This document shows, in pieces, positions 2,695 to 19,836 of a DNA stretch of 64,000 bases. The notes under the pieces were generated by a model that had not been told where the DNA came from, ran no database searches, and was given only the letters and a program-made list of their open reading frames with translations. The stretch spans positions 17,902-81,901 of the forward strand of contig JABIPA010000019.1 of NCBI GenBank assembly GCA_018698675.1, read 5' to 3'. Source of the DNA: a bacterium (GTDB lineage: Bacteria; Margulisbacteria; Marinamargulisbacteria; JABIPA01). The translations under genes and the position numbers were made by a program. The first letter of the stretch is position 1, and the number at the start of each line of letters is the position of its first letter.

Positions 2695-3993
2695 TTAAAA
2701 CTTTAAACTAATTTGAGATCTTAAATCAATCGACTTTCCTGTACCTTTATATTCTGAATTTGAATCTCCGAAATAGAAAATTAATGAATTGTTAAATGTA
2801 AGTTCGTTAATTAACGTATACGTCCATCCCAAGTTCATTAACCCAGACCCGTCGTTAAAGTTTTGAAGAATATTCACGAATGTATTACTTGAGTGATAAG
2901 GAAATTCTGAAATTGTAATAAATGCGGAATGATAATGTTTAGATAATTGATTTGGGATATAGATATTCTCTTCAACTAAGCTATCTATAAGTGATGTATC
3001 AGTCCAGTTTAAAGTCTCAAATCCATTTGTTTGATAATAGTGTTCATAAGTTACCCGGACTCTATTAGGTCGTTCCCAATTGATTGATTTGGATAATTGA
3101 CCCATCCATTGATACTGTCTGGATTCTGATTTGTACTGAACGTCTGACCCATTCATAAAAGGTTCTTTGCCATTAAATATACTTAATTCGCTTAAAATAT
3201 CGAACCCAAAAAGATAGGTAGATGCTTCAAGACCGAAACGGCTACTTTGATTTCGTTTAATCAAAGTAGAAATGCCCAGCTCAATATTTTTTAGGGCTAT
3301 TTCATACTTTGAAACTAGACTTAAGTCACTTGGTTCGTCTGACTGTTGAGAATTTAAAAAGAAGTAAAGATTACTTCGTGTTCCATTTGGTATGTGAACT
3401 TTTAATCCATAAACACCTTCTAGCGCTTGATTTAGATTCAAAAAGTCTTTTTTGTCGACATTTACAAAATCAATTGGATTCCAAAAATGCCCTTGGCCCC
3501 ATTTTAGATATTGTTTTCCAACCCTAAAATAAGAGGTGTAGTCTAAATTGAAATCGACGAAGTATTCTTTAATGTTAATGATAAGGGATTGAGCTGAGGG
3601 GACATTCGGATCATTTATTTGACCTAAGTAGATGTCCATAAACCCCTTAACTCCTTTTTGAAATCGAAAATCCAAGAAGAAATCAGCGTCTGAATAAAAT
3701 TGTAGTCTGTTGTTTGATACGGTGCTTTCAAATAGATTTGAGTTTCTATTTACTTCGTAGAGCCCATACATATTAATTATTCCAGTAAAATTTACAGAAT
3801 TTCTTTTCTCTATTAATGACGTCGTAGAAGGTTGAATCGTTTCAATTGTCATATCGATAGTTTCATTTTCGAATAATGATCCTTTGAAATCAAAAAAGGG
3901 TTCGCTGATGATATCTTCCGATAATAATACAGAAGATAGGCTTAGGAATGTGATTAGAAAAGATAATATCAAAGACTTTTTTAATGATTGCAT
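2695..3993 (-). CDS. Putative outer-membrane β-barrel protein of the exporter cluster
   Basis: N-terminal signal peptide (MQSLKKSLILSFLITFLSLSSVLLS). Alternating amphipathic β-strand character. C-terminal ...SLKF with terminal Phe, typical of BAM-assembled OMPs. Same strand as, and directly downstream of, the LolA-like and ABC genes. Confidence 0.45.
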   Translation of the reverse strand: MQSLKKSLILSFLITFLSLSSVLLSEDIISEPFFDFKGSLFENETIDMTIETIQPSTTSLIEKRNSVNFTGIINMYGLYEVNRNSNLFESTVSNNRLQFYSDADFFLDFRFQKGVKGFMDIYLGQINDPNVPSAQSLIINIKEYFVDFNLDYTSYFRVGKQYLKWGQGHFWNPIDFVNVDKKDFLNLNQALEGVYGLKVHIPNGTRSNLYFFLNSQQSDEPSDLSLVSKYEIALKNIELGISTLIKRNQSSRFGLEASTYLFGFDILSELSIFNGKEPFMNGSDVQYKSESRQYQWMGQLSKSINWERPNRVRVTYEHYYQTNGFETLNWTDTSLIDSLVEENIYIPNQLSKHYHSAFITISEFPYHSSNTFVNILQNFNDGSGLMNLGWTYTLINELTFNNSLIFYFGDSNSEYKGTGKSIDLRSQISLKF

Positions 3994-4000
3994 CGTGTTA

Positions 4001-4816
4001 TTAATTAGATAAATTTTCTAAATACGCCTTTGTGAATATATGATTGTCGATAGGACTAAACGTTATATCTGTAATTTCCCAAACCGTTTTGTTTCCTTTT
4101 TCAAAATTATCAATAACCATTTGCTTAATAGCAATAAATTTATCGTTAATTTTTGAATATTTTAGAAAATATTGTGTTGAAATAAGGGAGTTTGAATAAG
4201 ACTTATTTTGAATTTTTAAAGGAAGTAGGTTGTCCTGTCTGACCCATATCGTCAAATTTGGATAAGCGACATTTGGGAGGTCGGAGGAAACGTCAATTTT
4301 GTAAGCTGGAATCTTTCCTAAATTTACCGTTTGAATAATATCTTCATTGTCAGAGTCTTTTTTTCCTTTATACTGCAATTCATATTTAGGTGTTTCGAAA
4401 TCGCTCGTGTTAGCATCTGACCCGGCTATGCTTTCATCTCTGCTTATGTGCTGAAATGTTCGAGTATTTCTTCGGTACATCCAAAAATGATCATCGGCTT
4501 TCAGATACCCATTTCCTTTTTCCGATTCTGGAGCAGTCATGACAATTAAAAATTGGTCCGTAGATCCTTTTGCAAAATAAATAGATTCCATTTGCTTGAT
4601 CCCTTGTTCAATATCTTGTTGAAGAATGGTTACTTTTGCCGTGACATCTTTTTCTATTGTTTGTTGTTTATCTATTTTTTTTAAAATTTTATTGATAGAT
4701 GGTTTTAGTTTAAGGGATGTTGCCGAAAGTGAGGATGCTATCAATATGGTCGTTAAAAAAATAGTTATTGTTAATGGTCTGTTGTTTGAAACTGGGTAGT
4801 TTGTTTTATCATTCAT
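4001..4816 (-). CDS. LolA-like / outer-membrane lipoprotein-sorting-like periplasmic protein
   Basis: N-terminal signal anchor (LTITIFLTTILIASSLSATS). About 270 aa, the size and position typical of LolA_like proteins that accompany FtsX-type ABC exporters. 7-bp gap to the OMP gene and 14-bp gap to the permease gene. Confidence 0.4.
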   Translation of the reverse strand: MNDKTNYPVSNNRPLTITIFLTTILIASSLSATSLKLKPSINKILKKIDKQQTIEKDVTAKVTILQQDIEQGIKQMESIYFAKGSTDQFLIVMTAPESEKGNGYLKADDHFWMYRRNTRTFQHISRDESIAGSDANTSDFETPKYELQYKGKKDSDNEDIIQTVNLGKIPAYKIDVSSDLPNVAYPNLTIWVRQDNLLPLKIQNKSYSNSLISTQYFLKYSKINDKFIAIKQMVIDNFEKGNKTVWEITDITFSPIDNHIFTKAYLENLSN

Positions 4817-4830
4817 TAAATAATCCTTTC

Positions 4831-6531
4831 TTAACGCCTTAGTGCTTCTGATGGACTTAATTTTGCAGCATTTCTACACGGGAAGTAAACTGTAATTAGA
4901 GTGAATCCTAGAACTAATAATAAATTTTTAATGATATGAGATAGAGTTGGTAAAAAATAAATGCCGTTATCTACAAGTATCATACTTAGTGCATTGTCTG
5001 TATTGAATTCGAATAGTGAGATACCTTTCATGATACCAAACGAAATTAATATGCCGATTACAGAACTAATAGAAACAAGGATTAACATCTCTAAAAGAAA
5101 TATCCATTGCAGTTGTGATTTTTTAAGACCTATTGCTCTTAACGTTCCAATTTCCCTATAACGTTCCTTTATTGTCATTCTTAAAGAATTTAGGACTCCA
5201 ATCATAATAATAAAGAAGAGAATAATTGAAACGGAAAGAACAACTAAATTAAACATTTGTTCGAACTGAATGACTTCCTTTGCGGTTTCATACATCGAAG
5301 ACACATCAATCGTTGGTTGTGCTTTTTTATTTTTCATTAACGTTTTTAATTTTTTATTGAATGAAATGGTATCCTTTGTTCTTTTTGTTAACGTCCATTC
5401 TGTATCTATGACGTCTAGTATGGAGATATCAAAATTATTTTCTGTAAAATATTTTTGTAGATTTATTTTTTTATTTGGATAGGTGGTTTGGAATAGTTTA
5501 AAGAATCTTTCGCTTGGTAAGAAAATGATATTTTTTGATGTTTTAGAATAGATTCCTTTAACGGAGTCTTTTATGGGTATCGTCCCATATTTATTTGGCT
5601 CTCTTTGTGAAAATGTTAATTTTGAATGGGATGCATCAAGAGTATTTGAAATTATAGGAACATTTAGTACCGTTGCACGTTTTTTAGTTGTAGTAACGTC
5701 ACTTAGTTTGATTCCTAAACGTGTTGAAATGTTGTTTTGGGATGGTATGGTCCCTATTGGGACTACGATGATAGTTTTATTTCCTAATTTTGCCTGAATA
5801 CCTATTTTTTGAGGTGATAAATGTTGATGAATAGAGTCGGCCGTTGTTTTTGCCGTTTTAGGGTTTTTTAGAAGCAGCTTGAATGAACCCGACTCTTGGA
5901 GTTTATAGCCTAATAACGTTTTTAATGTGGCTGTTTTTGAAAAAATGGCATAGTCCATAAACATGTTTTTATTTTTCGTTATTATGGAAAGAATAAACGT
6001 ACCAGTGTTTGTTTGTCCGTTTACATTTGTTGCACGGATATTAACGGAATCTCCGATAGAAATGTTTAAATTTTTGGCCTTTTGTTCGGAAAGTATGATG
6101 GGATTATCTATAGATTCGAAAAGCTCATAACTACCTTCTAGTGGTTTATAGAGCTGCTTAAAATCCTCATCTAAATTTGTGTTGCTTACCCATGCATAAT
6201 CTCCTTTTCCATTCCCGACAACTCTTACTAGGCTTCCTATATCTTCATAAATGGTTTGAATATTTGGGTCACTTTTAAGGATGAGTGATTTTATTTTTTC
6301 TTTGTCTCTAAAAATAGGAGAAATGATTCGGCCGTTTTCAATTCCTTGAACTTTTACGTGTCCAGTCATGTATATAACCATTTTATTTAAAATATTGTCA
6401 GAAATACCGTTTGAAAATGCATTTGCTAACATCATGATCATGATGCCAAAACTTATAGATGCACCAATCATAAGGTTCCTTCGTTTTTGTCTTAAAAAAT
6501 TTCTAAAACTAATTTTCCAAATAGTAAACAT
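4831..6531 (-). CDS. ABC transporter permease, FtsX/MacB/LolCE family (permease 2)
   Basis: N-terminal TM (MIGASISFGIMIMMLANAF), a large periplasmic domain, and a C-terminal FtsX domain with the family motif RMTIKERYREIGTLRAIGLKKSQL plus three more TM helices. Confidence 0.8.
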   Translation of the reverse strand: MFTIWKISFRNFLRQKRRNLMIGASISFGIMIMMLANAFSNGISDNILNKMVIYMTGHVKVQGIENGRIISPIFRDKEKIKSLILKSDPNIQTIYEDIGSLVRVVGNGKGDYAWVSNTNLDEDFKQLYKPLEGSYELFESIDNPIILSEQKAKNLNISIGDSVNIRATNVNGQTNTGTFILSIITKNKNMFMDYAIFSKTATLKTLLGYKLQESGSFKLLLKNPKTAKTTADSIHQHLSPQKIGIQAKLGNKTIIVVPIGTIPSQNNISTRLGIKLSDVTTTKKRATVLNVPIISNTLDASHSKLTFSQREPNKYGTIPIKDSVKGIYSKTSKNIIFLPSERFFKLFQTTYPNKKINLQKYFTENNFDISILDVIDTEWTLTKRTKDTISFNKKLKTLMKNKKAQPTIDVSSMYETAKEVIQFEQMFNLVVLSVSIILFFIIMIGVLNSLRMTIKERYREIGTLRAIGLKKSQLQWIFLLEMLILVSISSVIGILISFGIMKGISLFEFNTDNALSMILVDNGIYFLPTLSHIIKNLLLVLGFTLITVYFPCRNAAKLSPSEALRR

Positions 6532-6532
6532 A

Positions 6533-8053
6533 TTAGTTCCTTAGTACTGAATCGAGGGGCGTTATTTTTCTAGCTAAATAGATAGGATAAATTGATGAGA
6601 GGCAAACGATTAGGCTGAGTTGAAGAACACAGAGCCCCACACTTATAAAATCAAGAGTAGGGGAGAATGTATCTCCACCATATAAAATTTGCAACATTTC
6701 ATGGCTTGTTGATAACTTTAAAAGTTTGAATCCAATAATTGTGATTGAGCCTAATATGATTCCAGCCCCGCCAAATACAAATGACAGTAGACTCGTTTCT
6801 GCCAAAAACATTGTTTGAATGAATCTTTTCTTTGTTCCAATTGCCCTCATCATGCCAATTTCAGGAATACGCTCCATAGTTGCCATGCTTAAGGTGTTCA
6901 TAATTATGATTATAGCGACGATGAAAATGAAAAGAACAAATAAGAAGAGAGATCCCTTCATGAGCATCGCAATTTGTCCGAACATTCCAATAGCGTCATT
7001 CCATGATATGGCTTGCAATGGAATGTTTTTCTCCTTAAGTAAATTGTTTATTTGAGTGATCGTTTTATTTAAGTTTACGTCTTTTTTTAATTTTACAAAG
7101 ATAATGTTATAGGTTCCCAATTTTTTATCTAGTTGGGATGTTTTGATGTGCTTTATGTCTGATAGGTCATTTTTTATTTTTGTCGTTGATTCATTTACTG
7201 TATCAAAGGAATCGTTAAATAAAGTGTCAATGGAATCTAAGCTTGAAGTCATTAAATTTTGATTTTTTGTGCTCAAATGAACGGCTTCGTCTGAAGATTC
7301 AAAGTATCCCATACATTCTCTAAATGAACTCATATCAACAATGCAGTAAAACCCTAGGATACTATTTAATTCTTTAAATTTTACGATACCTATAACATCA
7401 GTCAAAATATCTAAACTCGCATTTTTACTACTTAGTCCCATATATACAATTGATTTTTTTGTTTGTAGGGAGGAGCCATTCTTTTTTACTTTTTCAGGGG
7501 CTTTTTCTTGGTCAAATGAAGTATTTATCGGTACTGTCCATGAATCTGTAAAATCAAAATACCAGTCTCTCATTCGGGTTGATACAAGAACTCCCCTTTG
7601 GTTTTTTTTGAGAAGTGAGCCTTTTTCAACGATTAAATTATTATTAAAAAATTCTAAATATGATTCAATGTCGACGCCTAATAAATATTGGTCCAACGGA
7701 TTTCCATTTTCGTTGAGAACCCAAACATAGCCAGCTCCTGCGGGAAGAATTTTATCTATTGATGGGATATTTAATATTTGAGGCTTTAACTCAGTGAAGT
7801 TAGTAATAGGTTTTAAGGTATGACCTGTCATACTTGCGAGAACAGTTTTTTCGATTTGTTTATCTGAAACTAGAACCAGGTCCCCTGAAAAGTTGTTAAC
7901 AATATTTTTTTGAAGGCCTGTATCTAATCCGTTTATAACTCCATTTCCAATTGTCATAATGAAGGAACCTAGGCATAAGATAAGTCCTATAACGAAAGAC
8001 TTTCCTTTATGTCTATAGAGATTTCGCCATGCAATTTTTAGTTCAATTGGCAT
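6533..8053 (-). CDS. ABC transporter permease, FtsX/MacB/LolCE family (permease 1)
   Basis: Same architecture as the adjacent permease. FtsX motif ERIPEIGMMRAIGTKKRFI. Overlaps the ATPase gene by 11 nt. Confidence 0.8.
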   Translation of the reverse strand: MPIELKIAWRNLYRHKGKSFVIGLILCLGSFIMTIGNGVINGLDTGLQKNIVNNFSGDLVLVSDKQIEKTVLASMTGHTLKPITNFTELKPQILNIPSIDKILPAGAGYVWVLNENGNPLDQYLLGVDIESYLEFFNNNLIVEKGSLLKKNQRGVLVSTRMRDWYFDFTDSWTVPINTSFDQEKAPEKVKKNGSSLQTKKSIVYMGLSSKNASLDILTDVIGIVKFKELNSILGFYCIVDMSSFRECMGYFESSDEAVHLSTKNQNLMTSSLDSIDTLFNDSFDTVNESTTKIKNDLSDIKHIKTSQLDKKLGTYNIIFVKLKKDVNLNKTITQINNLLKEKNIPLQAISWNDAIGMFGQIAMLMKGSLFLFVLFIFIVAIIIIMNTLSMATMERIPEIGMMRAIGTKKRFIQTMFLAETSLLSFVFGGAGIILGSITIIGFKLLKLSTSHEMLQILYGGDTFSPTLDFISVGLCVLQLSLIVCLSSIYPIYLARKITPLDSVLRN

Positions 8054-8720
8054 TTATTTGGCCGTCGCGTATCGTGATTGATGAATCGGCGTATTTGAGT
8101 ATTTCTGGGTCGTGAGTAGAGAATAAAAACGTTGTTTTTCTAGTTTTATTTAAATCCTTCATTAGTTTTAGAATGATGGCTCCCGTTTCGGAGTCTAAAT
8201 TTGCGGTCGGTTCGTCAGCGAGCACGATTTCTGGGTCAGTCACCAAGGCTCGGGCAATTGCGACTCGTTGACGCTGGCCCCCCGAGAGTTCTGATGGACG
8301 GTGATCTTTTTGGTCCATTATATGAACGGATTTCATCATATCTAAGGCTTTTTGCCTGATTTCTTGTTTAGAGTATTTATTCATTAATAGAAGAGGGAAT
8401 TCTATGTTTTCTAATACATTTAAAACGGGAATTAAGTGGAAGGATTGAAATATAAATCCAATGTTGAAAAGACGAAGTTCTGTTAGCTGGTTATCTGTTA
8501 ATGAATCTATTTGATTTCCGTGAATTTGAACAGATCCTGAACTTGATTTGTCTATACATCCGATAACGTTAAGTAGTGTGGTTTTCCCACTTCCAGAAGG
8601 ACCAACTATCGCTGAAAAGGATCCTTTTTCTATCTTTAAATTAATGTTTTTCAGAGCATGGACAACTGTTTTACCTAAATAATAGTCTTTGTTTATATTT
8701 TTAAGCTCTACAATTGCCAT
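8043..8720 (-). CDS. ABC transporter ATP-binding protein, LolD/MacB type
   Basis: Walker A GPSGSGKTTLLN, Q-loop, ABC signature LSGGQRQRVAIARAL, Walker B LADEPT, H-loop STHD. GGGAG RBS 7 nt upstream of the ATG. Confidence 0.9.
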   Translation of the reverse strand: MAIVELKNINKDYYLGKTVVHALKNINLKIEKGSFSAIVGPSGSGKTTLLNVIGCIDKSSSGSVQIHGNQIDSLTDNQLTELRLFNIGFIFQSFHLIPVLNVLENIEFPLLLMNKYSKQEIRQKALDMMKSVHIMDQKDHRPSELSGGQRQRVAIARALVTDPEIVLADEPTANLDSETGAIILKLMKDLNKTRKTTFLFSTHDPEILKYADSSITIRDGQINAN

Positions 8721-9925: not shown

Positions 9926-10600
9926 TTAAATTATAATGCATGGCAAATTAATATTTTTAATTTCATCTGGGATATCTTTATCATAGTCAAAGTAGTGTAT
10001 TTCCATTGGAAATTTTTTGGATACGTATTTGTTGTGACAAAAGTAGTGAGGGAAGTTTTTTAAAAAATGTGTTTTTATCCCTGATGCATGGAAAAAAGCT
10101 TTTAATACAGATCTTTTACTGCAAATTAACACAATTTTTTTTGAATCAGTTTTTTTAAATTTTAGAAATTGACTATTTAATGTTGATTTAACTAAATTAA
10201 TTCCAATTTGTCTGGAATTTATATACGTTTCTTTTACAACAAGTTTAGTTAATTCTCGGATTTCAAAATTAGAGGTAAGATCGATCTTTTGATTAATTTC
10301 GTCAAAACTCACGTTACCGTATTCTAAGGCGTAGCTGTTTTCTAAATAGGCACCAATCGACCCAATAACTTTTCCATTGGATTTTGCCATTAAAAGTTGG
10401 TCGGGGAAACGTTCGATAGGTTCATTTGAAACAGGTTGTTGGTTTATTAAGGTAACACCATATTTTTTAAAATAAATAGAGGCCATTAACTCTTGGCATT
10501 CTTTTTTTTCGGTTTCATGTTTAACAATTTCTAATGTATGGCTGGACGCGAATTTCGTATTCGTATCATTTAGTTGTTTGATTAATGTTTTGCTAATCAT
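9926..10600 (-). CDS. Hypothetical protein; possibly a GNAT-fold N-acyltransferase / N-acyl-amino-acid-synthase-like protein
   Basis: 224 aa, no TM. Segment NFEIRELTKLVVKETYINSRQIGINLV resembles the E-x-R...V / Q-x-x-G-x-G core of the GNAT/LuxI/NAS fold. Start overlaps the upstream gene's stop (ATGA), indicating translational coupling. Confidence 0.3.
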   Translation of the reverse strand: MISKTLIKQLNDTNTKFASSHTLEIVKHETEKKECQELMASIYFKKYGVTLINQQPVSNEPIERFPDQLLMAKSNGKVIGSIGAYLENSYALEYGNVSFDEINQKIDLTSNFEIRELTKLVVKETYINSRQIGINLVKSTLNSQFLKFKKTDSKKIVLICSKRSVLKAFFHASGIKTHFLKNFPHYFCHNKYVSKKFPMEIHYFDYDKDIPDEIKNINLPCIII

Positions 10601-12885
10601 AGAAATTGGGATACCTTTTCAACGGGTCTTTTTAAGGATGCTATTGGCTCTTGATCCGAATAAAATAATCGAAACAGAAGGACGAGCCCGTTGTCTGACG
10701 AATGTGGAATAATTGGGGTAAATTTATTTTTTAATGAAAGTAGATCTTTTTTAAGCCAAGCTGGAAGAGTTTCTGGCTTTAAATAAAGACGAGTCAGTAA
10801 ATAACAGATGCTCGTCATTGGTTGTAAGCTAAGACCTTCTTTACTTGCTGTTAACCATAATTTTTCAAGTGCCTGTCCTCCATGAAAAAAGCTTAAGGGA
10901 TCATTCTTATCAGTTATAATACATCCAATAGCAGGGCTTTTTTCTATTTGTTTTAAGGAGAAGCTTTCTATCCCTTTTCCTCCCTTAACTTTTTTAAGAA
11001 GTTCAACAACTGACCAGCTTTTTGATAATTTTAATCCAGCGAGATCCAAATTTGATAGATAAAGAGTATCGATATCGATACCATCTCTAGAATCATCAAC
11101 TTCTTTTTTATTCCATCGGATTTCGTTATACATTTCTTCGTGGCATTGTTTGTGAAAGAATCGACATTTTTCTGATTCGGCGAAAATATCCGAAAGTTCT
11201 GCAATGTCTGAAGGGTCTGTTTTAAAAATTACTTTTGTACCTTCAATGCTTTCGCAGGCAGTTGTTAGTTTTGAAAATGTTGACGTTTTAATTTCCTGTT
11301 TTGATGCTTTTTTACGGTTCGTTTTTCGTTTGAATATTTCATTGAATAAATCTGGCATTGTAGTTGTTAGTTCTAATTTTTTAGTTTGTTTAAAAATAGC
11401 AACACATGGAAACGAATCTGGATAAATTGTTTCAAAGGTCATTCCATTTTTTTCGGCGGCTATTTTAAAATTTTCAGCGGCAGCTCCAAGGGCTAAATGA
11501 GAGGCTAGGTAATTTATATCTAAAAATATACCTGCTCTAGATTTGTCTATAAAAAGAAAAACGAGATCGTTGTGGATAATCCACTTCCATGGCTGGATAT
11601 TTCCACCTGAAGGGGCTTGGTTTGCACAATCAATGCATTCGGATATTTTTGATTTTATAATTGGGACTGTAGCTGATAGGTTTTTATCGATTATTATTTT
11701 TTTTGCACAGCTGAATTCATATTCATTAGCGGATATGTCTTTAACTAGCTCCTTATTAGTAGTAATAGATTCCTGAGATTTATTTAAATTATTAGATTCT
11801 GTTTTAGTCGAAGTGGGTTGGTTTTTATCTAGTTCTTCGTCTAAATCGAAATAATAACGCCCCGATTGAGTGTGAGTAGATAACAGAATTCTTCTTGCTA
11901 CGTGAGTTGCAATTCCTGCTCCATTAGAAACTGACGAAGCAAGTTGGGGCCAAGAATTTATGCTTTGTTCAATTTCTAACATACTTGATTTTAATCTATC
12001 GGAAGCATCATTTATTCCAAGAATATCTAAAACTAATGGTATTTTTTCTTCATTTGTAAGATTTTTTAAGTTGGTTTTATTTTCTAAATTAGTAAGTCCA
12101 TGAAATAAAGGTCTGTCAGGCTCTAAATCGAATCGTTCAATATCTAAAAGTTCTCTGTCAGTTGTATGCATGATTACAGGAATGTTTAAGTTTTTACATT
12201 TTTTTCTTATTTCAATTTTTGTTTCAAAGCAGTCACATTCTTCAATAACGAGGTCAAGTTGAGCTGTTTCTGTAAGAAATTCAGAATAATTTTGGGTGTT
12301 TAAACCTTTGTCGAATATTGTTAATTTTAAAAATGGGTCAATTTCAAGTATTTCACGTGCTGTTAAAATTGCTTTGTTCATACCGATGTTTTTTACATTT
12401 GTTCTAATTCTATTTAGATTTGAAAGTTCAATTGAATCGAAATCAGCAAGTCTAATTTCACCGCATATTCTTTCTTGTGCAATAGTTAGCGCTATTGCGT
12501 GACCTACGGATAGCCCGACGACGCCTATTTTTTTTGCTTTTAATTCGATTTGTTCTTCTTCTGAAATTTTGTACATGTTTCTTGCTGTTCTTAATTTAAT
12601 GAATTTATTTTCATCAAGAAGATGCACGAGGTGATTATTCCACGGGTAATATACCCAAACCCCAATGTTATTTTTATTACCTGTGTCAAAATACTGTTTT
12701 TTAGCATTTTCTATGACTTTGTCTGATTTTTCGTTAGGAATAAAGAGTTTTGTATATTCTAATAGTTGACTTTCGATTTCATCAAAAATTTGGATATTGG
12801 AATTGTTTTTTAAATGCACAAGTTTATCAGCGTCGATTGGATTATTAGGATCTAGTATATCTACTTGAAATTTATATTTTTCCAT
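10597..12885 (-). CDS. ThiF/MoeB/E1-like adenylyltransferase domain fused to tandem nitroreductase-like domains (MoeY/Rv1355c-like architecture)
   Basis: E1 Rossmann motif IGVVGLSVGHAIALTIAQERICGEIRLADFDSIELSNLNRI (G-x-x-G-x-x-x-G ... D-x-D ... SNLNR, as in ThiF/MoeB/MccB). C-terminal half carries the nitroreductase hallmark APSGGNIQPWKW. 762 aa. Confidence 0.7.
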   Translation of the reverse strand: MEKYKFQVDILDPNNPIDADKLVHLKNNSNIQIFDEIESQLLEYTKLFIPNEKSDKVIENAKKQYFDTGNKNNIGVWVYYPWNNHLVHLLDENKFIKLRTARNMYKISEEEQIELKAKKIGVVGLSVGHAIALTIAQERICGEIRLADFDSIELSNLNRIRTNVKNIGMNKAILTAREILEIDPFLKLTIFDKGLNTQNYSEFLTETAQLDLVIEECDCFETKIEIRKKCKNLNIPVIMHTTDRELLDIERFDLEPDRPLFHGLTNLENKTNLKNLTNEEKIPLVLDILGINDASDRLKSSMLEIEQSINSWPQLASSVSNGAGIATHVARRILLSTHTQSGRYYFDLDEELDKNQPTSTKTESNNLNKSQESITTNKELVKDISANEYEFSCAKKIIIDKNLSATVPIIKSKISECIDCANQAPSGGNIQPWKWIIHNDLVFLFIDKSRAGIFLDINYLASHLALGAAAENFKIAAEKNGMTFETIYPDSFPCVAIFKQTKKLELTTTMPDLFNEIFKRKTNRKKASKQEIKTSTFSKLTTACESIEGTKVIFKTDPSDIAELSDIFAESEKCRFFHKQCHEEMYNEIRWNKKEVDDSRDGIDIDTLYLSNLDLAGLKLSKSWSVVELLKKVKGGKGIESFSLKQIEKSPAIGCIITDKNDPLSFFHGGQALEKLWLTASKEGLSLQPMTSICYLLTRLYLKPETLPAWLKKDLLSLKNKFTPIIPHSSDNGLVLLFRLFYSDQEPIASLKRPVEKVSQFL

Positions 12886-13163: not shown

Positions 13164-14561
13164 ATGAACACAATTACAAACCTTTTGATGCTGTATGGTG
13201 GTATTTTATTAATAAATACTATTATTTCAATTTTTCTTTGGATAAATGATAAATCTAAAACTAGTTTCTATAAAATTATGTTTTATATTTGGTTTTCGAG
13301 TGTTGTTGCTTTTGTTTTTCAAGGAATATTGCAGCAAAATGACTTAGCTATTGTATCTGGTTTTGCTTTTACATTGTTTACTGTTTTTTCTTTAGTTTTC
13401 CTATTTAAAGATATTTATTCTTTTCGGGTACCTATTAAACGATTAGTCGGGTTTTTCGTCGTTTCTTATGGAACAACTATTTTACTTTTAATTAATGGTA
13501 TTGAATTTGTTTATGCTGTTTTGCCTTTGTCCTTTAGTGTTGCATTACCCTTACTTGTTACGGCATATCATGGTTTTTTTAAACGATGGAACGAGCTTAC
13601 CTTTCCCGGGAAAGGATATATTTGGGTAGCTGTAATGTTTTCTATCCATATTTTAGATTTTCCATTTTTGAGAAAGGTTGATTCCGCAGCGACTCTTGGT
13701 TTTTTAATTGCTATTCTCATCGTTTTTGGATTTTCTATTTTCGCGCCTGCCATGGTTATAGAAATTCTTGCAAAAAGGCAAACTCGGATTGTTGCTGAAA
13801 TTGATGTTGCTAAGAAGATTCAAACTGAAATTTTACCTAAAGACCCTCATGTTCCTGGGATGGATCTTACATGTTTTATGAGGCCTGCAGATGAGGTTGG
13901 GGGCGATTATTATGATATTTACTCTGTTGGAGACAAGACATGGTTGTTTCTTGGAGATGTGACTGGACATGGTCTCGGATCCGGCCTCGTGATGTTTATG
14001 GCTCAAAGTATTATTACTTCTATATTAGAGACAAACCAGTCGATTACTCCTATGGGTTTAAATCTGTTGTTTAACCAAATATTATTTAACAATTTGGAAC
14101 GATTGAATGAAAAGCGTCCGATGGCTCTAATTTCTTTATGTTTTGGAAAAAATAATTCGGTTGCTCTTAGTGGTAATCACGATCTTATTTTTGTGTACCG
14201 ATATAAAACTAAATTGATTGAAAAATTGGAACTTTATCAATTTCCTATGGGACTAGGGTTTACCGATAATTTTGATGAGTCTGCGGTAAAAGATGAATCA
14301 TTGGTTTTAGAAGACGGAGATATTTTATTCTTGGGAACAGACGGAATTACTGAAGCGGCGAGACATGGGGACGTTAATTTAGGCATGTTTGGTGAAGAAC
14401 TTTTGGAAAAATGGTTGGAAGAGAATTGTGAAAACACCGTTGATGAAATGAAGAAGTCATTGCTTGAAAAATTGGACAATTATACCAATGGAAATTACTT
14501 TGATGACATTACTTTTGTAATTGCACGTTTAGATTCTCAAAAACTGGGTAAAATTATTTAA
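13164..14561 (+). CDS. Membrane-anchored PP2C-family (SpoIIE/RsbU/SiaA-like) Ser/Thr phosphatase with an N-terminal 6-7-TM sensor domain
   Basis: About 200 aa of successive hydrophobic helices, then a PPM domain with motifs DEVGGDYYD, GDVTGHGLGSGLVM, GTDGITEA and DDITFV (metal-binding Asp residues). Confidence 0.8.
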   Translation: MNTITNLLMLYGGILLINTIISIFLWINDKSKTSFYKIMFYIWFSSVVAFVFQGILQQNDLAIVSGFAFTLFTVFSLVFLFKDIYSFRVPIKRLVGFFVVSYGTTILLLINGIEFVYAVLPLSFSVALPLLVTAYHGFFKRWNELTFPGKGYIWVAVMFSIHILDFPFLRKVDSAATLGFLIAILIVFGFSIFAPAMVIEILAKRQTRIVAEIDVAKKIQTEILPKDPHVPGMDLTCFMRPADEVGGDYYDIYSVGDKTWLFLGDVTGHGLGSGLVMFMAQSIITSILETNQSITPMGLNLLFNQILFNNLERLNEKRPMALISLCFGKNNSVALSGNHDLIFVYRYKTKLIEKLELYQFPMGLGFTDNFDESAVKDESLVLEDGDILFLGTDGITEAARHGDVNLGMFGEELLEKWLEENCENTVDEMKKSLLEKLDNYTNGNYFDDITFVIARLDSQKLGKII

Positions 14562-16128: not shown

Positions 16129-17601
16129 TCAGAAAGACGTAGTTTCGTCAATTATTTCGTTTTTTAGACGAATCTCTTTTTGGTCGGCTCGTTTGATTGA
16201 AACATTTCCACTAAAAGTAACATTTTTTTCAATGTGAACATTTCCTTCAATTTTGAGACTTTTTACAGTTTTAAGAGAAGGTGTTTCTAATACCCGGTTT
16301 TCATATTTTTCAACAGTATCGAATTCTTTTCCAAGTGATATAGATGGAAGGTCGTTTACATCTACTTGTTCCGAAAACCTGTAGGTATTGTTTTCTTTAA
16401 TCAGAAAATCAGATCGAAGAAGCATAAGGTCTGATGTTTTTTTTACCGGAAGAAATCTCGTTCTAGGTACGACACAAGTAATTGCGTTATCAAACAAATT
16501 TATTGCCGCTCCCATCGCTGTTTCAAGCTGAATAATATTAGTATTATTTATCGTTTTTGGATTTGCAATTAATGGAAGTAGGAAATTTTCTTTTTCCATT
16601 TTTCTTTTCAATTGTTTCAGATTTATCCAAATGTTATTTGTGTTAAATATTTTGAATTTTTGAATGTTTTCAAACTCTGGAAGATGCTCTGTTTCTACTT
16701 GGGCACGTTCAAGGAGAGTTAGTTTATTGTTTACTCTAACTAATGTTCCACCTTTTACATCTAGTTTTGTTTTTTTAGTGGTTTCCATAAGAAAGTCTAC
16801 GTTATTTTCTGACATATAGTTTGGAATAGCTATATCGATAGTCGCTCCAATATTGTCAGAATTGGAAATAAAAATATATTCCTTATTATCGTTTATTAAT
16901 TTATCGATCCATCCAGATTCATTTAATGTTAAAAATACGTCTCCGTGCCCGGGAGGATTCCATTCTTGGTCTGAATTAGTACGCATCGTAAATGGTTCGC
17001 CTGATTGTTTATTTATTTTTGGAAACTGGTTTTGTATGATCGCATTGAATGGTTTGTTTTCTTTTTTAAAAAAACGTTCGGTTTGAGAATGTGTGTTAAA
17101 GCTATTTAATAAAATGAGAGGCAACTTCACTTTATATGTTGATTCAAAAAATGAAAGTTGTTCTTGAATAATAGTTAAGAAATTTTTGTTTTTGAATATC
17201 GGAACTAATGATTTTGGCCCTACACAACCCATTGACGTTCCTAGCCCACCATTTAATTTTAGAACCGCAATTTTTTTAAGGATTGATTGTGGAGAGTCTG
17301 GTTTTTTTAAATCGTCATAATTTATTTCGTCGGATATATTTAAGGGGTTTATTTTAGACCATTCTATTTTAGCTTCTGGGTTAAAAAGGTAGTTTAAATA
17401 GAGTAAGGAAAACGTTAATTTTGTTCCGATTGATTGTTTTTTAAGAGTCATTTTATCTAGATAAATTGGAAGTTTTGTTAGAAATGTTTGCTTCGTAGCT
17501 TCAAAGTTTTGATAAGAACGATATGTCTCAATGTTTGTGTTTATTTTACCTAATTCAGCTTCGTTGAAAAACGCGTTAAGAATATTTTTCATATTACTCA
17601 T
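16129..17601 (-). CDS. UTP-glucose-1-phosphate uridylyltransferase, eukaryotic-type UDPGP family
   Basis: UDPGP-family signature LNGGLGTSMGCVGPKS and C-terminal left-handed β-helix-like region. 490 aa, the size of eukaryotic UGPases rather than GalU. Confidence 0.75.
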   Translation of the reverse strand: MSNMKNILNAFFNEAELGKINTNIETYRSYQNFEATKQTFLTKLPIYLDKMTLKKQSIGTKLTFSLLYLNYLFNPEAKIEWSKINPLNISDEINYDDLKKPDSPQSILKKIAVLKLNGGLGTSMGCVGPKSLVPIFKNKNFLTIIQEQLSFFESTYKVKLPLILLNSFNTHSQTERFFKKENKPFNAIIQNQFPKINKQSGEPFTMRTNSDQEWNPPGHGDVFLTLNESGWIDKLINDNKEYIFISNSDNIGATIDIAIPNYMSENNVDFLMETTKKTKLDVKGGTLVRVNNKLTLLERAQVETEHLPEFENIQKFKIFNTNNIWINLKQLKRKMEKENFLLPLIANPKTINNTNIIQLETAMGAAINLFDNAITCVVPRTRFLPVKKTSDLMLLRSDFLIKENNTYRFSEQVDVNDLPSISLGKEFDTVEKYENRVLETPSLKTVKSLKIEGNVHIEKNVTFSGNVSIKRADQKEIRLKNEIIDETTSF

Positions 17602-19142
17602 TATAGAAATAATTTGTACGCAGGATTATTTGATTCGTTTTTTGTAAAAAATCCTGTTGATTTGAGAAAAGTTTCAAATTTCTCAGAGTCTGGGTTCGGA
17701 ACTTGAATCCCAGCTAGAACCCTACCATAAGCAGCTCCATGGTTTCTGTAATGAAATAGACTGATATTCCAATTATCTCCTAATTGCTTTAGAAAAGTTA
17801 AAAGAGCTCCGGGCCTTTCGGGAAATTGGAAACGATATATCTTTTCGTCTTCTAAATTATTTGTTTTTCCACCGACCATATGACGGATATGTATTTTTGC
17901 CAGCTCATTGTCGGATAAGTCTTGTGCTTTAAAATTTGAAGAGTCAAAAAGTTTCATTAGCTCTAAACGTTCCGAAGATCCATTTGTAAGTTCAATTCCA
18001 ACAAAAATATGCGCATTTTTGGAGTCCGCATACCTGTAATTAAACTCAGTTATAGACCGATTTCCAAGAGAATTACAAAATTTGTTAAAACTACCAGCCT
18101 TTTCAGGAATGGTGACAGCGAATAAGCCTTCTTTGTTTTCCCCAATCTCGGTTCGTTCGGATACATGTCTAAGCCTATCAAAGTTTATATTCGCTCCGGA
18201 GTTTATCGCAACATATGTTTGATTCTTTTTAGATTGAGCGTATTTTTTTAAGCCGGCTAATGCAAGAGCGCCCGAAGGTTCGGCAATAGAACGTGTGTCG
18301 TCAAAAATATCTTTAATCGAGGAACAAATTTCGTCAGTTGTTACTAAAATTACGTCATCGACAGTGTGGGTTAATAGTTTATAAGGTTCTTTTCCAATTT
18401 GTTTTACAGCGACACCATCCGCAAAAATTCCAACATGTTCTAGAATTTCTCTTTTTCCAGACTTTAATGAGTTATATAGAGCTGGGGAATCTTCTGGCTC
18501 AACGCCAATAATTTTGATAGAAGGATCAACAAACTTTAAATAAGCACTAACTCCGGCAATAAGACCTCCACCACCAATCGGAATAAAAACTGCATCAATT
18601 TTTTCTTTCTTTTGGCGCATGATTTCCATTCCAATAGTGCCTTGTCCTGCAATGACTTCTTCGTCGTCATACGGATGAATAAACGTGATGTTTTTCGTTT
18701 TTGCATATTTTGAAGCGAATTCAAAAGACTCGTCGTAGCTATCTCCATGCAGAATTACAGTAGAGCCTAATGCTTTTACCGCGGAAACTTTTATTGAAGG
18801 TGTCGTTTTTGGCATGACTATGGTTGCTTTTAAATTCAATTTTTTAGCTGAAAGGGCAACTCCTTGTGCATGATTTCCAGCGGAGGATGTTACCACTTCT
18901 TCAATTTTTTCAGTTTTTAGAATAGATGAGATTTTATTATAGGCGCCTCTTATTTTAAAAGAGAATACAGGCTGAAGGTCTTCTCTTTTTAAATAAACGT
19001 TATTGTTTGTTCGAGAAGAAGCTAATGCTAGTTTTTGAAGAGGCGTTTCTGTGATGATGTCATAAACAGAGGATCTCAGTATTTTTTCTACAATTTTATT
19101 TAGCATTGTAAGCACCTTATCAAGCCTATTATTTGTCGTCAA
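17601..19142 (-). CDS. ilvA: Threonine dehydratase, biosynthetic (IlvA) with C-terminal regulatory domains
   Basis: PLP-lysine motif SFKIRGA, glycine-rich loop GGGGLIAG. 513 aa with two C-terminal ACT-like repeats. Confidence 0.85.
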   Translation of the reverse strand: MTTNNRLDKVLTMLNKIVEKILRSSVYDIITETPLQKLALASSRTNNNVYLKREDLQPVFSFKIRGAYNKISSILKTEKIEEVVTSSAGNHAQGVALSAKKLNLKATIVMPKTTPSIKVSAVKALGSTVILHGDSYDESFEFASKYAKTKNITFIHPYDDEEVIAGQGTIGMEIMRQKKEKIDAVFIPIGGGGLIAGVSAYLKFVDPSIKIIGVEPEDSPALYNSLKSGKREILEHVGIFADGVAVKQIGKEPYKLLTHTVDDVILVTTDEICSSIKDIFDDTRSIAEPSGALALAGLKKYAQSKKNQTYVAINSGANINFDRLRHVSERTEIGENKEGLFAVTIPEKAGSFNKFCNSLGNRSITEFNYRYADSKNAHIFVGIELTNGSSERLELMKLFDSSNFKAQDLSDNELAKIHIRHMVGGKTNNLEDEKIYRFQFPERPGALLTFLKQLGDNWNISLFHYRNHGAAYGRVLAGIQVPNPDSEKFETFLKSTGFFTKNESNNPAYKLFL

Positions 19143-19836
19143 ATAAATGTGTGAAACGTGGGTCCTCTTTTAGAAAATTTAATGTGTGAATTGGTGAAAT
19201 AGTGTCAGTATTCGATATAGGTGAGTGCTTGTTTTTTTGGTCTGATATTAGGTTTTTTAGGTCTTTTAACGTGTCTATGTCAGATAGTTTTGGGAGGATA
19301 TGAATAGTCTTGTTTTGGGAAAGAATTTTTGTTTTTGTTTCGTTGAAAACGGATTCAGTGCTCCAATTTATATCTTTAAAAATATTATCAAAAAACGCGT
19401 TTTTGTTTATACCTATTAAGTAGTAACCACCATCAAAGGCGGGTCCAATTACTGTATCATTTGTTTCAAGAGAGTCTGACGCTTTTTTAATTAAGGTTCC
19501 AGAAATTTGTGGCGAGTCGGTTCCAATTACGATGACCTTAGAATGCCCATTTTCAAACTCTTTCTTAAACGAATGAATGAGTTTCTCACCAAGGTTTCCA
19601 TCACATTGAAAATTGATTTCTAATGAGGTATTTAACCATTTTTCGTATGCGTTTAAAGATTCGTTTTTTTTTGCATAAATAACGGCGTCGATGTTGTTCG
19701 AGGTTATTGTATTTAAAACATCGGTCGTAAACTTTTTGTAGATTGATGAGGAAAAAGTCATTGAGGTATTCGTTCCGAGCCTCGATTTAACATCCCCGGG
19801 AGTGGGGTACTTTAAGAAAACAATGAGTTTTGTCAT
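19129..19836 (-). CDS. DUF2064 (TIGR04282-type) nucleotidyltransferase/glycosyltransferase-like protein
   Basis: N-terminal KLIVFLKYPTPGDVKSRLG and C-terminal GPAFDGGYYLIGI...INWSTESV match the DUF2064 consensus (PxPGxVKTRL ... PAxDGGYyLlG ... idWsT). Confidence 0.55.
   Translation of the reverse strand: MTKLIVFLKYPTPGDVKSRLGTNTSMTFSSSIYKKFTTDVLNTITSNNIDAVIYAKKNESLNAYEKWLNTSLEINFQCDGNLGEKLIHSFKKEFENGHSKVIVIGTDSPQISGTLIKKASDSLETNDTVIGPAFDGGYYLIGINKNAFFDNIFKDINWSTESVFNETKTKILSQNKTIHILPKLSDIDTLKDLKNLISDQKNKHSPISNTDTISPIHTLNFLKEDPRFTHLFDDK

Follow-up and report, generated by a model that had tools for sequence, protein, structure and literature searches.

What is made by a bacterial enzyme in which a ThiF-like adenylating domain is joined to a flavin-dependent oxidase (FDO) domain, and why should its gene lie back to back with those of a phosphatase signalling switch? 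The question is raised by a 64,000-nucleotide stretch of contig JABIPA010000019.1 (positions 17,902 to 81,901 of the forward strand; the whole stretch is called the window in the following), which stems from an uncultured marine bacterium of the Marinamargulisbacteria. The fusion gene in this window belongs to the Rv1355c family, whose namesake makes oxazolones, compounds that hydrolyse readily and whose purpose is “a major unresolved question” according to the authors who described the TrzAS system (PMC12856293). It is our view that the minus-strand genes between positions 12885 and 9926 probably constitute a pathway that converts N-acyl amino acids into oxazolones in the manner of OxzAB, TyzACB and TrzAS, and that its acyltransferase is gated by a partner switch encoded on the opposite strand. 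Judged by sequence, the fusion enzyme itself is an ordinary new member of a characterised family, and what appears to be new at this locus is the coupling of a rare acyltransferase family to a conserved partner switch. The divergent genes for a seven-transmembrane (7TM) PP2C phosphatase and for slr1658-like and slr1659-like proteins, which were absent from the first-pass annotation of this stretch, are its more interesting part. A neighbourhood with a phosphatase signalling module that is conserved in about a dozen diverse bacteria hints at the role of oxazolone lipids, and this context provides the question of their function with an experimental handle.

The fusion enzyme, its acyltransferase neighbour and their predicted chemistry

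In the first-pass annotation, the open reading frame (ORF) at 10597-12885 had been read as a MoeY/Rv1355c-like fusion of an active-looking adenylation domain and tandem nitroreductase domains. Its coordinates and its product of 762 amino acids (aa) stand, and the gene lies on the minus strand (Table 1). The proposed architecture is borne out by the NCBIfam model NF005901 (“Rv1355c family protein”), which the fusion matches at equivalog level with 719.2 bits against a cutoff of 476. The alignment runs from end to end, aa 3-760 corresponding to positions 8-719 of the 722 in the profile, and a sequence match of this size is far above chance. A protein identical in sequence to the fusion already exists at NCBI under the same family name, and the family is a large one, with more than 4,580 proteins matching the fusion at E < 1e-10.

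The motifs quoted in the first-pass annotation, GVVGLSVGHAIA (aa 121-132), DFDSIELSNLNRI (aa 148-160) and SGGNIQPW (aa 426-433), are all present. An alignment of 16 homologues with 38-83% identity, to which all further statements on invariant positions of the fusion refer, shows no variation at the key residues of these motifs: G121, G124, G128, D148, D150, N156, N158 and R159 in the first two motifs, and S426, G428, N429, Q431, P432 and W433 in the third. The N-terminal region, for which a Pfam scan gave no match, is marked by the invariant residues G75, W77, W82, H88, L90, R99, T100, R102 and N103. Pfam ThiF covers aa 102-288 (E 3.1e-20), and the adenylation domain indeed looks active, as its Mg-ATP site is complete with G-loop, DxD residues (D148 and D150), R159, K171 and D218 all invariant. 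In an alignment to E. coli ThiF (1zud/1zfn), D218 of the fusion corresponds to D127 of ThiF, and SNLNR to SNLQR. D218 is located in the ThiF adenylation motif that also holds D217 of TrzS, an equivalence drawn through ThiF D127 and not through a direct alignment to TrzS. The fusion sequence contains no CxxC motif and no cysteine at all within aa 231-391, which makes thioester or persulfide chemistry unlikely. As far as the sequence can tell, direct attack of an amide oxygen on an acyl-adenylate would be the natural route for this enzyme.

A low-complexity linker (aa 351-404) leads into the C-terminal region, of which Pfam Nitroreductase covers just the first 30 residues (aa 408-437, E 1.5e-6). 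The invariant positions extend much further and comprise APSGGNxQPW (424-433), RxTNR (520-524), R575, H582, E588, R590 and W591. A nitroreductase-superfamily region is therefore present, as had been claimed, but it does not consist of tandem domains: an internal-repeat test revealed one short helix common to both halves (aa 462-485 vs 665-688, P 0.013), and the sequence is best described as that of one Acg-type FDO domain of about 360 aa.

The earlier description of this family as functionally unassigned is out of date; the chemistry of the family was worked out between 2021 and 2025. Rv1355c was identified as TrzS, and Rv1356c as the acyltransferase TrzA, which N-acylates tryptophan (Kleetz et al., JBC 2025, PMC12856293). 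TrzS first cyclises N-acyl-tryptophan in an ATP-dependent reaction and then desaturates the ring with O2 and flavin mononucleotide (FMN), yielding N-acyl tryptazolone. A D217A exchange abolishes the cyclisation and an R540A exchange impairs the desaturation, R540 and Q651 being FMN-binding residues (PMC12856293). OxzB is likewise a ThiF-nitroreductase didomain protein and makes N-acyl tyrazolones together with the N-acyltransferase OxzA (de Rond, Asay & Moore, bioRxiv 10.1101/2020.06.11.147165), and TyzACB of Mycobacterium tuberculosis is a split system with the same oxazolone chemistry (Grigg et al., JBC 2023, PMC10404671). For OxzB, TyzB/C and TrzS, this chemistry was demonstrated both in vitro and in vivo (bioRxiv 10.1101/2020.06.11.147165, PMC10404671, PMC12856293). 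In addition, NAS/ThiF/nitroreductase triads were implicated in the formation of N-acyl dehydrotyrosines in Planctomycetota and Pseudomonadota (PMC12479983).

The ATGA overlap, through which the fusion gene had been proposed to be coupled to a gene for a possible acyltransferase, is real on the minus strand, where the end of the fusion gene (...TTT CTA TGA) overlaps the start of the following gene (ATG ATT AGC). Searches of Pfam, NCBIfam and PDB sequences with the 224-aa product of this second gene alone gave nothing meaningful (a chance match to a contact-dependent inhibition toxin had an E value of 0.027), and a PDB search with the profile of its family gave no match. A word-indexed search of 5.8 billion proteins returned the ORF itself and one relative with 87% identity. 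HMMER, run exhaustively on 1.84 billion cluster representatives, assigned 35 clusters to the family, and 20 proteins were recovered with the family profile, every named one of which is called “hypothetical protein”. Half of the members match Pfam GNAT models and two match FeeM. An AlphaFold2 prediction from an alignment of two sequences reached a pLDDT of 33.8; for the final model, 30 relatives from the HMMER search were added, and the resulting alignment of 32 sequences gave a pLDDT of 90.1 and a pTM of 0.86. The final model adopts the three-layer alpha/beta/alpha GNAT fold typical of FeeM and the acyl-homoserine lactone (AHL) synthases, and LasI, EsaI, FeeM and BjaI occupy the top ranks of a Foldseek search at a sequence identity of just 10-13% (PDB 2g0b, 1ro5, 3p2h, 5w8c). 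It contains an E-x-T-K-L-V-V strand, which we take to resemble the E-x-S-R motif of FeeM and the AHL synthases, and about 40 extra C-terminal residues with an invariant FPxYxxHxxY motif. FeeM and BjaI were also reported as the closest structural homologues of TyzA, and acyltransferases of the TyzA/OxzA/TrzA type were found to share little sequence similarity among themselves (PMC10404671). The earlier suggestion of an acyltransferase is supported at the level of fold by this model, which points to a FeeM/LuxI-type acyl-transferring GNAT placed in the acyltransferase slot of the pathway.

As the chemistry of the Rv1355c family is known, the substrate class of the fusion, which had been regarded as unknown, becomes predictable: an N-acyl amino acid provided by the neighbouring GNAT. 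In the first step of the proposed pathway, the FeeM/LuxI-fold GNAT would N-acylate an amino acid with an acyl group from acyl-CoA or acyl-ACP. In the second step, the ThiF domain of the fusion would adenylate the free carboxylate with ATP, Mg-ATP being bound by D218 and the G-loop, and attack by the amide oxygen would close the ring to a saturated 5(4H)-oxazolone. This cyclisation should proceed without an enzyme thioester, because the relevant ThiF region lacks a cysteine. In the third step, the FMN-dependent FDO domain would use O2 to desaturate the C-alpha/C-beta bond, resulting in an alkylidene or arylidene oxazolone that is labile and hydrophobic. The order of acylation, ATP-dependent cyclisation and O2/FMN-dependent desaturation is taken by analogy from the published homologues.

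The partner switch and its recurrence with the acyltransferase family

A 278-bp, AT-rich spacer separates the fusion gene from a divergently oriented gene for a membrane sensor phosphatase. Its PP2C domain is recognised by Pfam SpoIIE (E 2.6e-25, 89.9 bits vs a cutoff of 25), and the metal-binding motifs GDVTGHG, GTDGITE and DDIT are readable in its sequence. Hydropathy peaks indicate six or seven transmembrane (TM) segments and no extracellular domain. Downstream follow an slr1658-like protein with a conserved N-box, INELIENAVKFS, an slr1659-like STAS protein and a second slr1658-like protein. The motif “fmNSSG” is conserved in 29 members of the slr1659-like family, and its serine is kept in the window as NSAG. 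On the evidence of the sequences, the genes between 13164 and 16107 form a conserved unit with the oxazolone cassette, and the window appears to hold every part of this unit in two divergent operons.

This unit was traced through the GNAT family. The positions of genes encoding its members were looked up, metagenome contigs were scanned for additional ones with a 10-sequence subset of the family, and neighbours were labelled with hidden Markov models seeded from the window proteins. The resulting 51 loci, many of which are situated on short contigs, display a recurrent order of 7TM-PP2C, GNAT, slr1658-like and slr1659-like STAS genes, followed by ThiF and FDO. A PP2C partner was found in 41 of the 51 loci, slr1658 in 43, slr1659 in 33, ThiF in 22 and FDO in 23. 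Thirteen loci (12 distinct ones, as two are identical) have at least 3 kb of sequence on both sides. In 12 of these 13, PP2C, TM sensor, slr1658, ThiF and FDO are all present, and slr1659 is found in 11; the full module set occurs in 11 of the 12 distinct loci. The median identity of the GNAT in the well-flanked loci is 42%. Among the named hosts of the family are Anaeromyxobacter terrae, a Myxococcota UBA796 metagenome-assembled genome (MAG) and a Phycisphaerales MAG. The A. terrae genes for PP2C, GNAT, the slr1658-like protein and STAS have 4-nt overlaps, and 1.2 kb downstream of the STAS gene a ThiF-FDO fusion of 824 aa is encoded.

Two further features of these loci bear on the association. 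First, natural GNAT-slr1658 fusion proteins exist (P0140, at L084:8001-9146, and P0144), in which the GNAT is N-terminal and the slr1658 domain C-terminal (89.5 bits in P0140). They are followed by an slr1659-like and a second slr1658-like gene, so that the order slr1658-slr1659-slr1658 is the same as in the window. Second, the ThiF and FDO parts of the module may be split or fused and may lie on either side of the core or divergent from it. Where a GNAT-family module locus has a ThiF partner, the ThiF and FDO genes are split in about half of the cases, and three kinds of partner can be distinguished, namely fusions of the Rv1355c-like type (355-455 bits to the window protein), split proteins of the same type and ThiF proteins that are very distant (about 36-42 bits). 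The use of three different kinds of partner argues for selection on the combination and not for shared descent alone.

The nearest homologues of the fusion outside the lineage of the window are found in Bacteroidota, with about 43% identity. A comparison of 79 related genome loci (L003-L081) revealed a different GNAT-like neighbour family of 230-269 aa, upstream or downstream of the fusion, in 71 of them, and one further related locus has a bona fide FeeM-family neighbour. A profile of the Bacteroidota neighbour family gave weak acetyltransferase hints only when compared with the PDB. A 7TMR-DISM sensor histidine kinase of about 715 aa is located directly downstream of the fusion in 63 of the 79 loci (PF07695, E 6e-51), followed by a hybrid response-regulator/kinase of about 361 aa and single-domain response regulators (example coordinates in L007: 10910-13066, 13075-14154 and 7315-7779). 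The PP2C/slr1658/slr1659 module was detected in none of the 79. Thus, as far as gene content can tell, two branches of the family are each tied to a different kind of membrane 7TM signalling protein. A third kind of 7TM signalling neighbour was observed in a MAG labelled as belonging to the Patescibacteria group, where a HisKA_7TM sensor kinase follows the fusion (L056:10313-12019). In a Burkholderiales MAG, a 1078-aa ORF carries about 430 unassigned residues ahead of its ThiF-FDO part (L016:2149-5385); a triple fusion is conceivable, and so is an artefact that arose from calling the ORF at its first start codon.

Table 1. Coordinates of the genes and domains discussed in the text (positions refer to the window).
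Feature	Coordinates	Strand	Basis and remarks
ThiF-FDO fusion gene	10597-12885	minus	762 aa + stop (ATG 12885, TGA 10599-10597); predicted TrzS/OxzB-like oxazolone synthetase, Rv1355c family
N-terminal region of fusion, ~aa 1-95	12601-12885	minus	Family-conserved, consensus YGVWVYYPW..LVHLLDE..F..RT.RN.YKI
ThiF-like adenylating/cyclase domain, ~aa 100-350	11836-12588	minus	G-loop 121-128, D148/D150, R159, K171, D218
Acg-type FDO domain (nitroreductase superfamily), ~aa 405-762	10600-11673	minus	Acg-family model NF047509, aa 417-694, 131.7 bits
GNAT-fold acyltransferase, 224 aa	9926-10600	minus	Candidate N-acyl amino acid synthase; rare unannotated family; ATGA overlap with fusion
Second, stand-alone Acg-like FDO, 342 aa	8873-9901	minus	NF047509 126.2 bits, cutoff 199; PDB 2ymv (Acg) E 0.0014
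LolD-like ABC ATPase	8043-8720	minus	Pfam/NCBIfam
FtsX-type permeases, two	6533-8053 and 4831-6531	minus	Pfam/NCBIfam
LolA_like protein	4001-4816	minus	Pfam/NCBIfam
432-aa protein	2695-3993	minus	No Pfam or NCBIfam match; signal-peptide-like N-terminus, C-terminal ...SLKF
Membrane sensor phosphatase, PP2C	13164-14561	plus	Six or seven hydrophobic segments (aa 1-200) and PP2C/SpoIIE domain (aa 257-456)
slr1658-superfamily GHKL-like regulator, copy 1, 202 aa	14564-15172	plus	NF047703 119.6 bits, cutoff 100
slr1659-like STAS protein, 112 aa	15190-15528	plus	Conserved Ser motif FLNSAG
slr1658-superfamily GHKL-like regulator, copy 2, 188 aa	15541-16107	plus	NF047703 136.9 bits, cutoff 100

What the signalling neighbourhood may mean

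In the proposed scheme of control, the slr1658-like protein would keep hold of its partner or phosphorylate it, and a membrane cue would cause the membrane phosphatase to reset the STAS protein. The GNAT, once freed, would represent the output of the switch and start lipid synthesis. Gating of the GNAT by the partner switch is favoured because the GNAT gene forms part of the switch operon and because fusions of the GNAT to an slr1658-like protein occur, a classic sign of physical interaction. If the link is functional, it ties a new class of lipids to post-translational signalling and gives the poorly understood slr1658/slr1659 regulators a concrete output.

Several observations weigh against this scheme. 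One GNAT-family locus (L132) carries PP2C, GNAT, slr1658 and slr1659 genes with no ThiF or FDO gene in range, and another (L113) is devoid of any module partner. At L083:1545-10281, the GNAT gene is followed by those for a FAD_binding_4 oxidase, a non-ribosomal peptide synthetase of C-A-T-TE organization (1328 aa) and a 718-aa SpoIIE phosphatase, again with no ThiF or FDO gene. The STAS protein of the window scores below curated cutoffs (64 bits vs 100 for NF047705 and 21.9 vs 22.6 for Pfam STAS), and the GNAT family gave no significant hhalign match (probabilities of 0.7-2.8%) to the GNAT-like proteins encoded beside the Bacteroidota fusions. The slr1658-like proteins are no more than candidate kinases, the direction of control is pure inference, and the predicted roles of the fusion and the GNAT are drawn from sequence, fold and gene linkage. 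The L083 locus may be controlled in a similar way and lead to another product, a lipid or a peptide.

The same chemistry can also be read with its logic reversed. In this arrangement, which we hold to be unlikely although it deserves serious attention, the oxazolone or N-acyl amino acid would be a signal, either diffusible or borne by the membrane, and the 7TM-PP2C its receptor, the two forming a pair like LuxM/LuxN or CqsA/CqsS, and the switch would relay perception to some other output. As a putative receptor, the PP2C protein would suit a lipid: its six or seven TM segments form a block large enough for a ligand, and an extracellular domain is lacking. The GNAT fold is that of the synthases of AHL and N-acyl amino acid signals, and oxazolones are labile like many signals. 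A signalling role has already been proposed for them in the literature, but no phenotype was observed by de Rond et al. when bacteria were exposed to the compounds (bioRxiv 10.1101/2020.06.11.147165). In a text search of four papers on oxazolone pathways, such a role was encountered as a speculation, and a neighbouring phosphatase, sensor or histidine kinase is not mentioned there; cyclic di-GMP turnover genes adjoin trzAS in M. tuberculosis (PMC12856293). A parallel comes from the Bacteroidota, where the fusions are flanked by a different 7TM receptor, the 7TMR-DISM kinase, to which the single HisKA_7TM locus may be added. The 7TM block of the PP2C protein and that of 7TMR-DISM are nevertheless not demonstrably homologous (hhalign probability 7.7%), and the GNAT-slr1658 fusions are more simply explained by direct control of an enzyme.

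In its general form, to which we likewise assign only a modest chance, this view would make oxazolones or N-acyl (dehydro)amino acids the lipid signals of self-contained circuits. GNAT and ThiF-FDO would produce the signal and the neighbouring 7TM receptor would read it, being fused to PP2C and acting on slr1658/slr1659 in the lineage of the window and at Myxococcota-type loci, and fused to a kinase in Bacteroidota. If true, oxazolones would acquire a physiological role as a new, autoinducer-like class of signals across several phyla, and slr1658/slr1659 would acquire a function. Computation cannot separate gating of the GNAT from reception of its product, and the 7TM kinases of Bacteroidota favour the receptor view.

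It is improbable, in our estimation, that the GNAT stands outside the ThiF-FDO pathway, serving as a regulatory protein acetyltransferase or small-molecule acetyltransferase of the partner switch while the fusion uses another carboxylate. The tightest partners of the GNAT family would fit such a role, as they are PP2C and slr1658 (41-43 of the 51 loci), with slr1659 as the third switch gene, and not ThiF or FDO (22-23). Some loci have neither ThiF nor FDO, half of the family matches generic acetyltransferase models, and there is no sequence link to the usual neighbour of the Rv1355c family. The low ThiF and FDO counts, however, are mostly due to short contigs, both being present in 12 of the 13 well-flanked loci (3 kb or more on either side). 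Moreover, the window GNAT takes the slot and shows the coupling of the acyltransferase in 71 of the 79 related loci, its best structural matches are synthases that transfer long acyl chains and not protein acetyltransferases, and no other candidate acyltransferase lies beside the fusion in the window.

ThiF-like and nitroreductase-type proteins co-occur in systems for RiPPs (peptides of ribosomal origin that carry post-translational modifications) and in those for thiazole/oxazole-modified microcins (TOMMs). A function of this type, with a precursor peptide docked or adenylated by the ThiF domain and azolines oxidised by the nitroreductase-type domain as in McbC or SagB, is very hard to maintain for the fusion, even though its ThiF domain gives weak PDB matches to MccB and PaaA (E 8e-5 to 4e-4). 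None of nine scanned neighbouring ORFs matches the YcaO family, and the intergenic regions contain only chance-like ORFs of 20-33 aa and no credible peptide gene. The ATP site is intact, unlike that of the docking-only “ocin-ThiF” proteins, and the family that is matched at equivalog level has proven substrates among small N-acyl amino acids. The comparisons with TOMM proteins, MccB and RiPP recognition elements in the first-pass annotation set the wrong frame. An E1 enzyme of the MoeB/ThiF/MoeZ type for a ubiquitin-like sulfur carrier, as implied by the historical name MoeY and by generic ThiF-family similarity, has next to no probability left, given that Rv1355c itself makes tryptazolones (PMC12856293), that MoeB and ThiF models reach 50-62 bits against cutoffs of 152-376 (34-62 against 152-647 with MoeZ included), that the Zn-binding CxxC pair and a catalytic cysteine are lacking, and that no match to rhodanese, MoaD or ThiS families was obtained for any of the nine neighbouring ORFs scanned.

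Flanking genes and likeness to known systems

The second nitroreductase noted downstream in the first-pass annotation was confirmed as an Acg-like FDO. It matches NF047509 over nearly its full length (aa 7-305 corresponding to positions 2-303 of 319) and shares 24% identity over 120 aa with the FDO domain of the fusion. From its sequence, it is a relative of the Acg family outside the curated subfamily, and no counterpart was found in the other module loci. Beyond a 152-nt gap follows a string of ABC/LolA-like genes (2695-8720) that are spaced by -11 to +14 nt. The 432-aa protein at the end of this string may be an outer-membrane component. The arrangement is kept just in a relative with 82% identity, and the ABC ATPase of the window matched an ORF in one of 49 GNAT-family loci. 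It is therefore uncertain from the sequences whether these genes are part of the unit, and export of a hydrophobic product by them is an attractive guess that the comparative evidence does not support. Any role of the second FDO and of the ABC/LolA-like genes is a matter of inference, as are the substrates, the product and the direction of control.

A plus-strand ORF (88-2679) encodes 863 aa from the first start codon in the window and 1025 aa on the source contig, with a faint ARM_PUB match as its sole hit. Directly beyond the partner-switch genes, a minus-strand string (16129-19836) codes for a UDPGP-family pyrophosphorylase (490 aa), a threonine dehydratase (513 aa) and a DUF2064/CofC-like protein (235 aa), and this string is syntenic in the relative with 82% identity. 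SI072_bin15 (GCA_018699495.1) is a relative genome of the MAG from which the window derives. No Rfam family, tRNA families included, reached its gathering score in the 64-kb window, and scans for promoters and terminators gave counts at the level of shuffled sequence that are uninformative on operon boundaries.

Among the known systems, TrzAS of M. tuberculosis and M. smegmatis (PMC12856293) resembles the window in that both have a ThiF-FDO fusion falling into one and the same equivalog family of NCBIfam, with an intact ATP site that includes the aspartate of the D217A motif. Further points in common are an FDO of the FMN type, predicted as such in the window, that follows a disordered linker, an operon shared with an acyltransferase gene, and adjoining signalling genes. 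In the window, however, the acyltransferase gene is located downstream and not upstream of the fusion and belongs to a different, rare GNAT family, an additional stand-alone Acg-like FDO is present, and 7TM-PP2C, slr1658 and slr1659 genes are linked to the cassette. The host also differs, being a low-GC (32%) uncultured marine bacterium. OxzAB of Pseudoalteromonas rubra similarly combines an N-acyltransferase with a ThiF-nitroreductase didomain protein and gives labile products that were proposed as stress signals (bioRxiv 10.1101/2020.06.11.147165), but OxzB is assigned to FDO subcluster A8 and Rv1355c to A4, and no regulatory module was reported beside oxzAB. TyzACB (PMC10404671) and the dehydrotyrosine triads (PMC12479983) unite the same three activities, and their acyltransferases share the FeeM/AHL-synthase-like fold with negligible sequence similarity between lineages. 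In contrast to the fused gene of the window, tyzB and tyzC are split, and tyz adjoins mmpL9, whereas the window cassette adjoins the ABC/LolA-like set.

The two FDOs of the window can be compared with the Acg/Rv3131 enzymes (PDB 2ymv): the second FDO and the C-terminal domain of the fusion both match NF047509 and its N-terminal APSxxNxQPW motif, although with 126 and 132 bits both remain below the cutoff of 199. The divergent genes find their counterparts in SiaABCD of Pseudomonas aeruginosa and in RsbU/V/W (PMC7647112, PMC8457831), where a PP2C phosphatase anchored in the membrane is likewise combined with a small kinase-like GHKL protein and with a small phospho-acceptor. In the window, this likeness is read from the genes, and the STAS protein would be the putative phospho-acceptor. 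The slr1658-like proteins resemble SiaB faintly (22.5 bits vs a cutoff of 85), and the presumed output is a lipid-forming GNAT instead of a diguanylate cyclase. SiaABCD nonetheless controls an enzyme, SiaD, and not a sigma factor, and thereby offers an analogy for the control proposed here for the GNAT.

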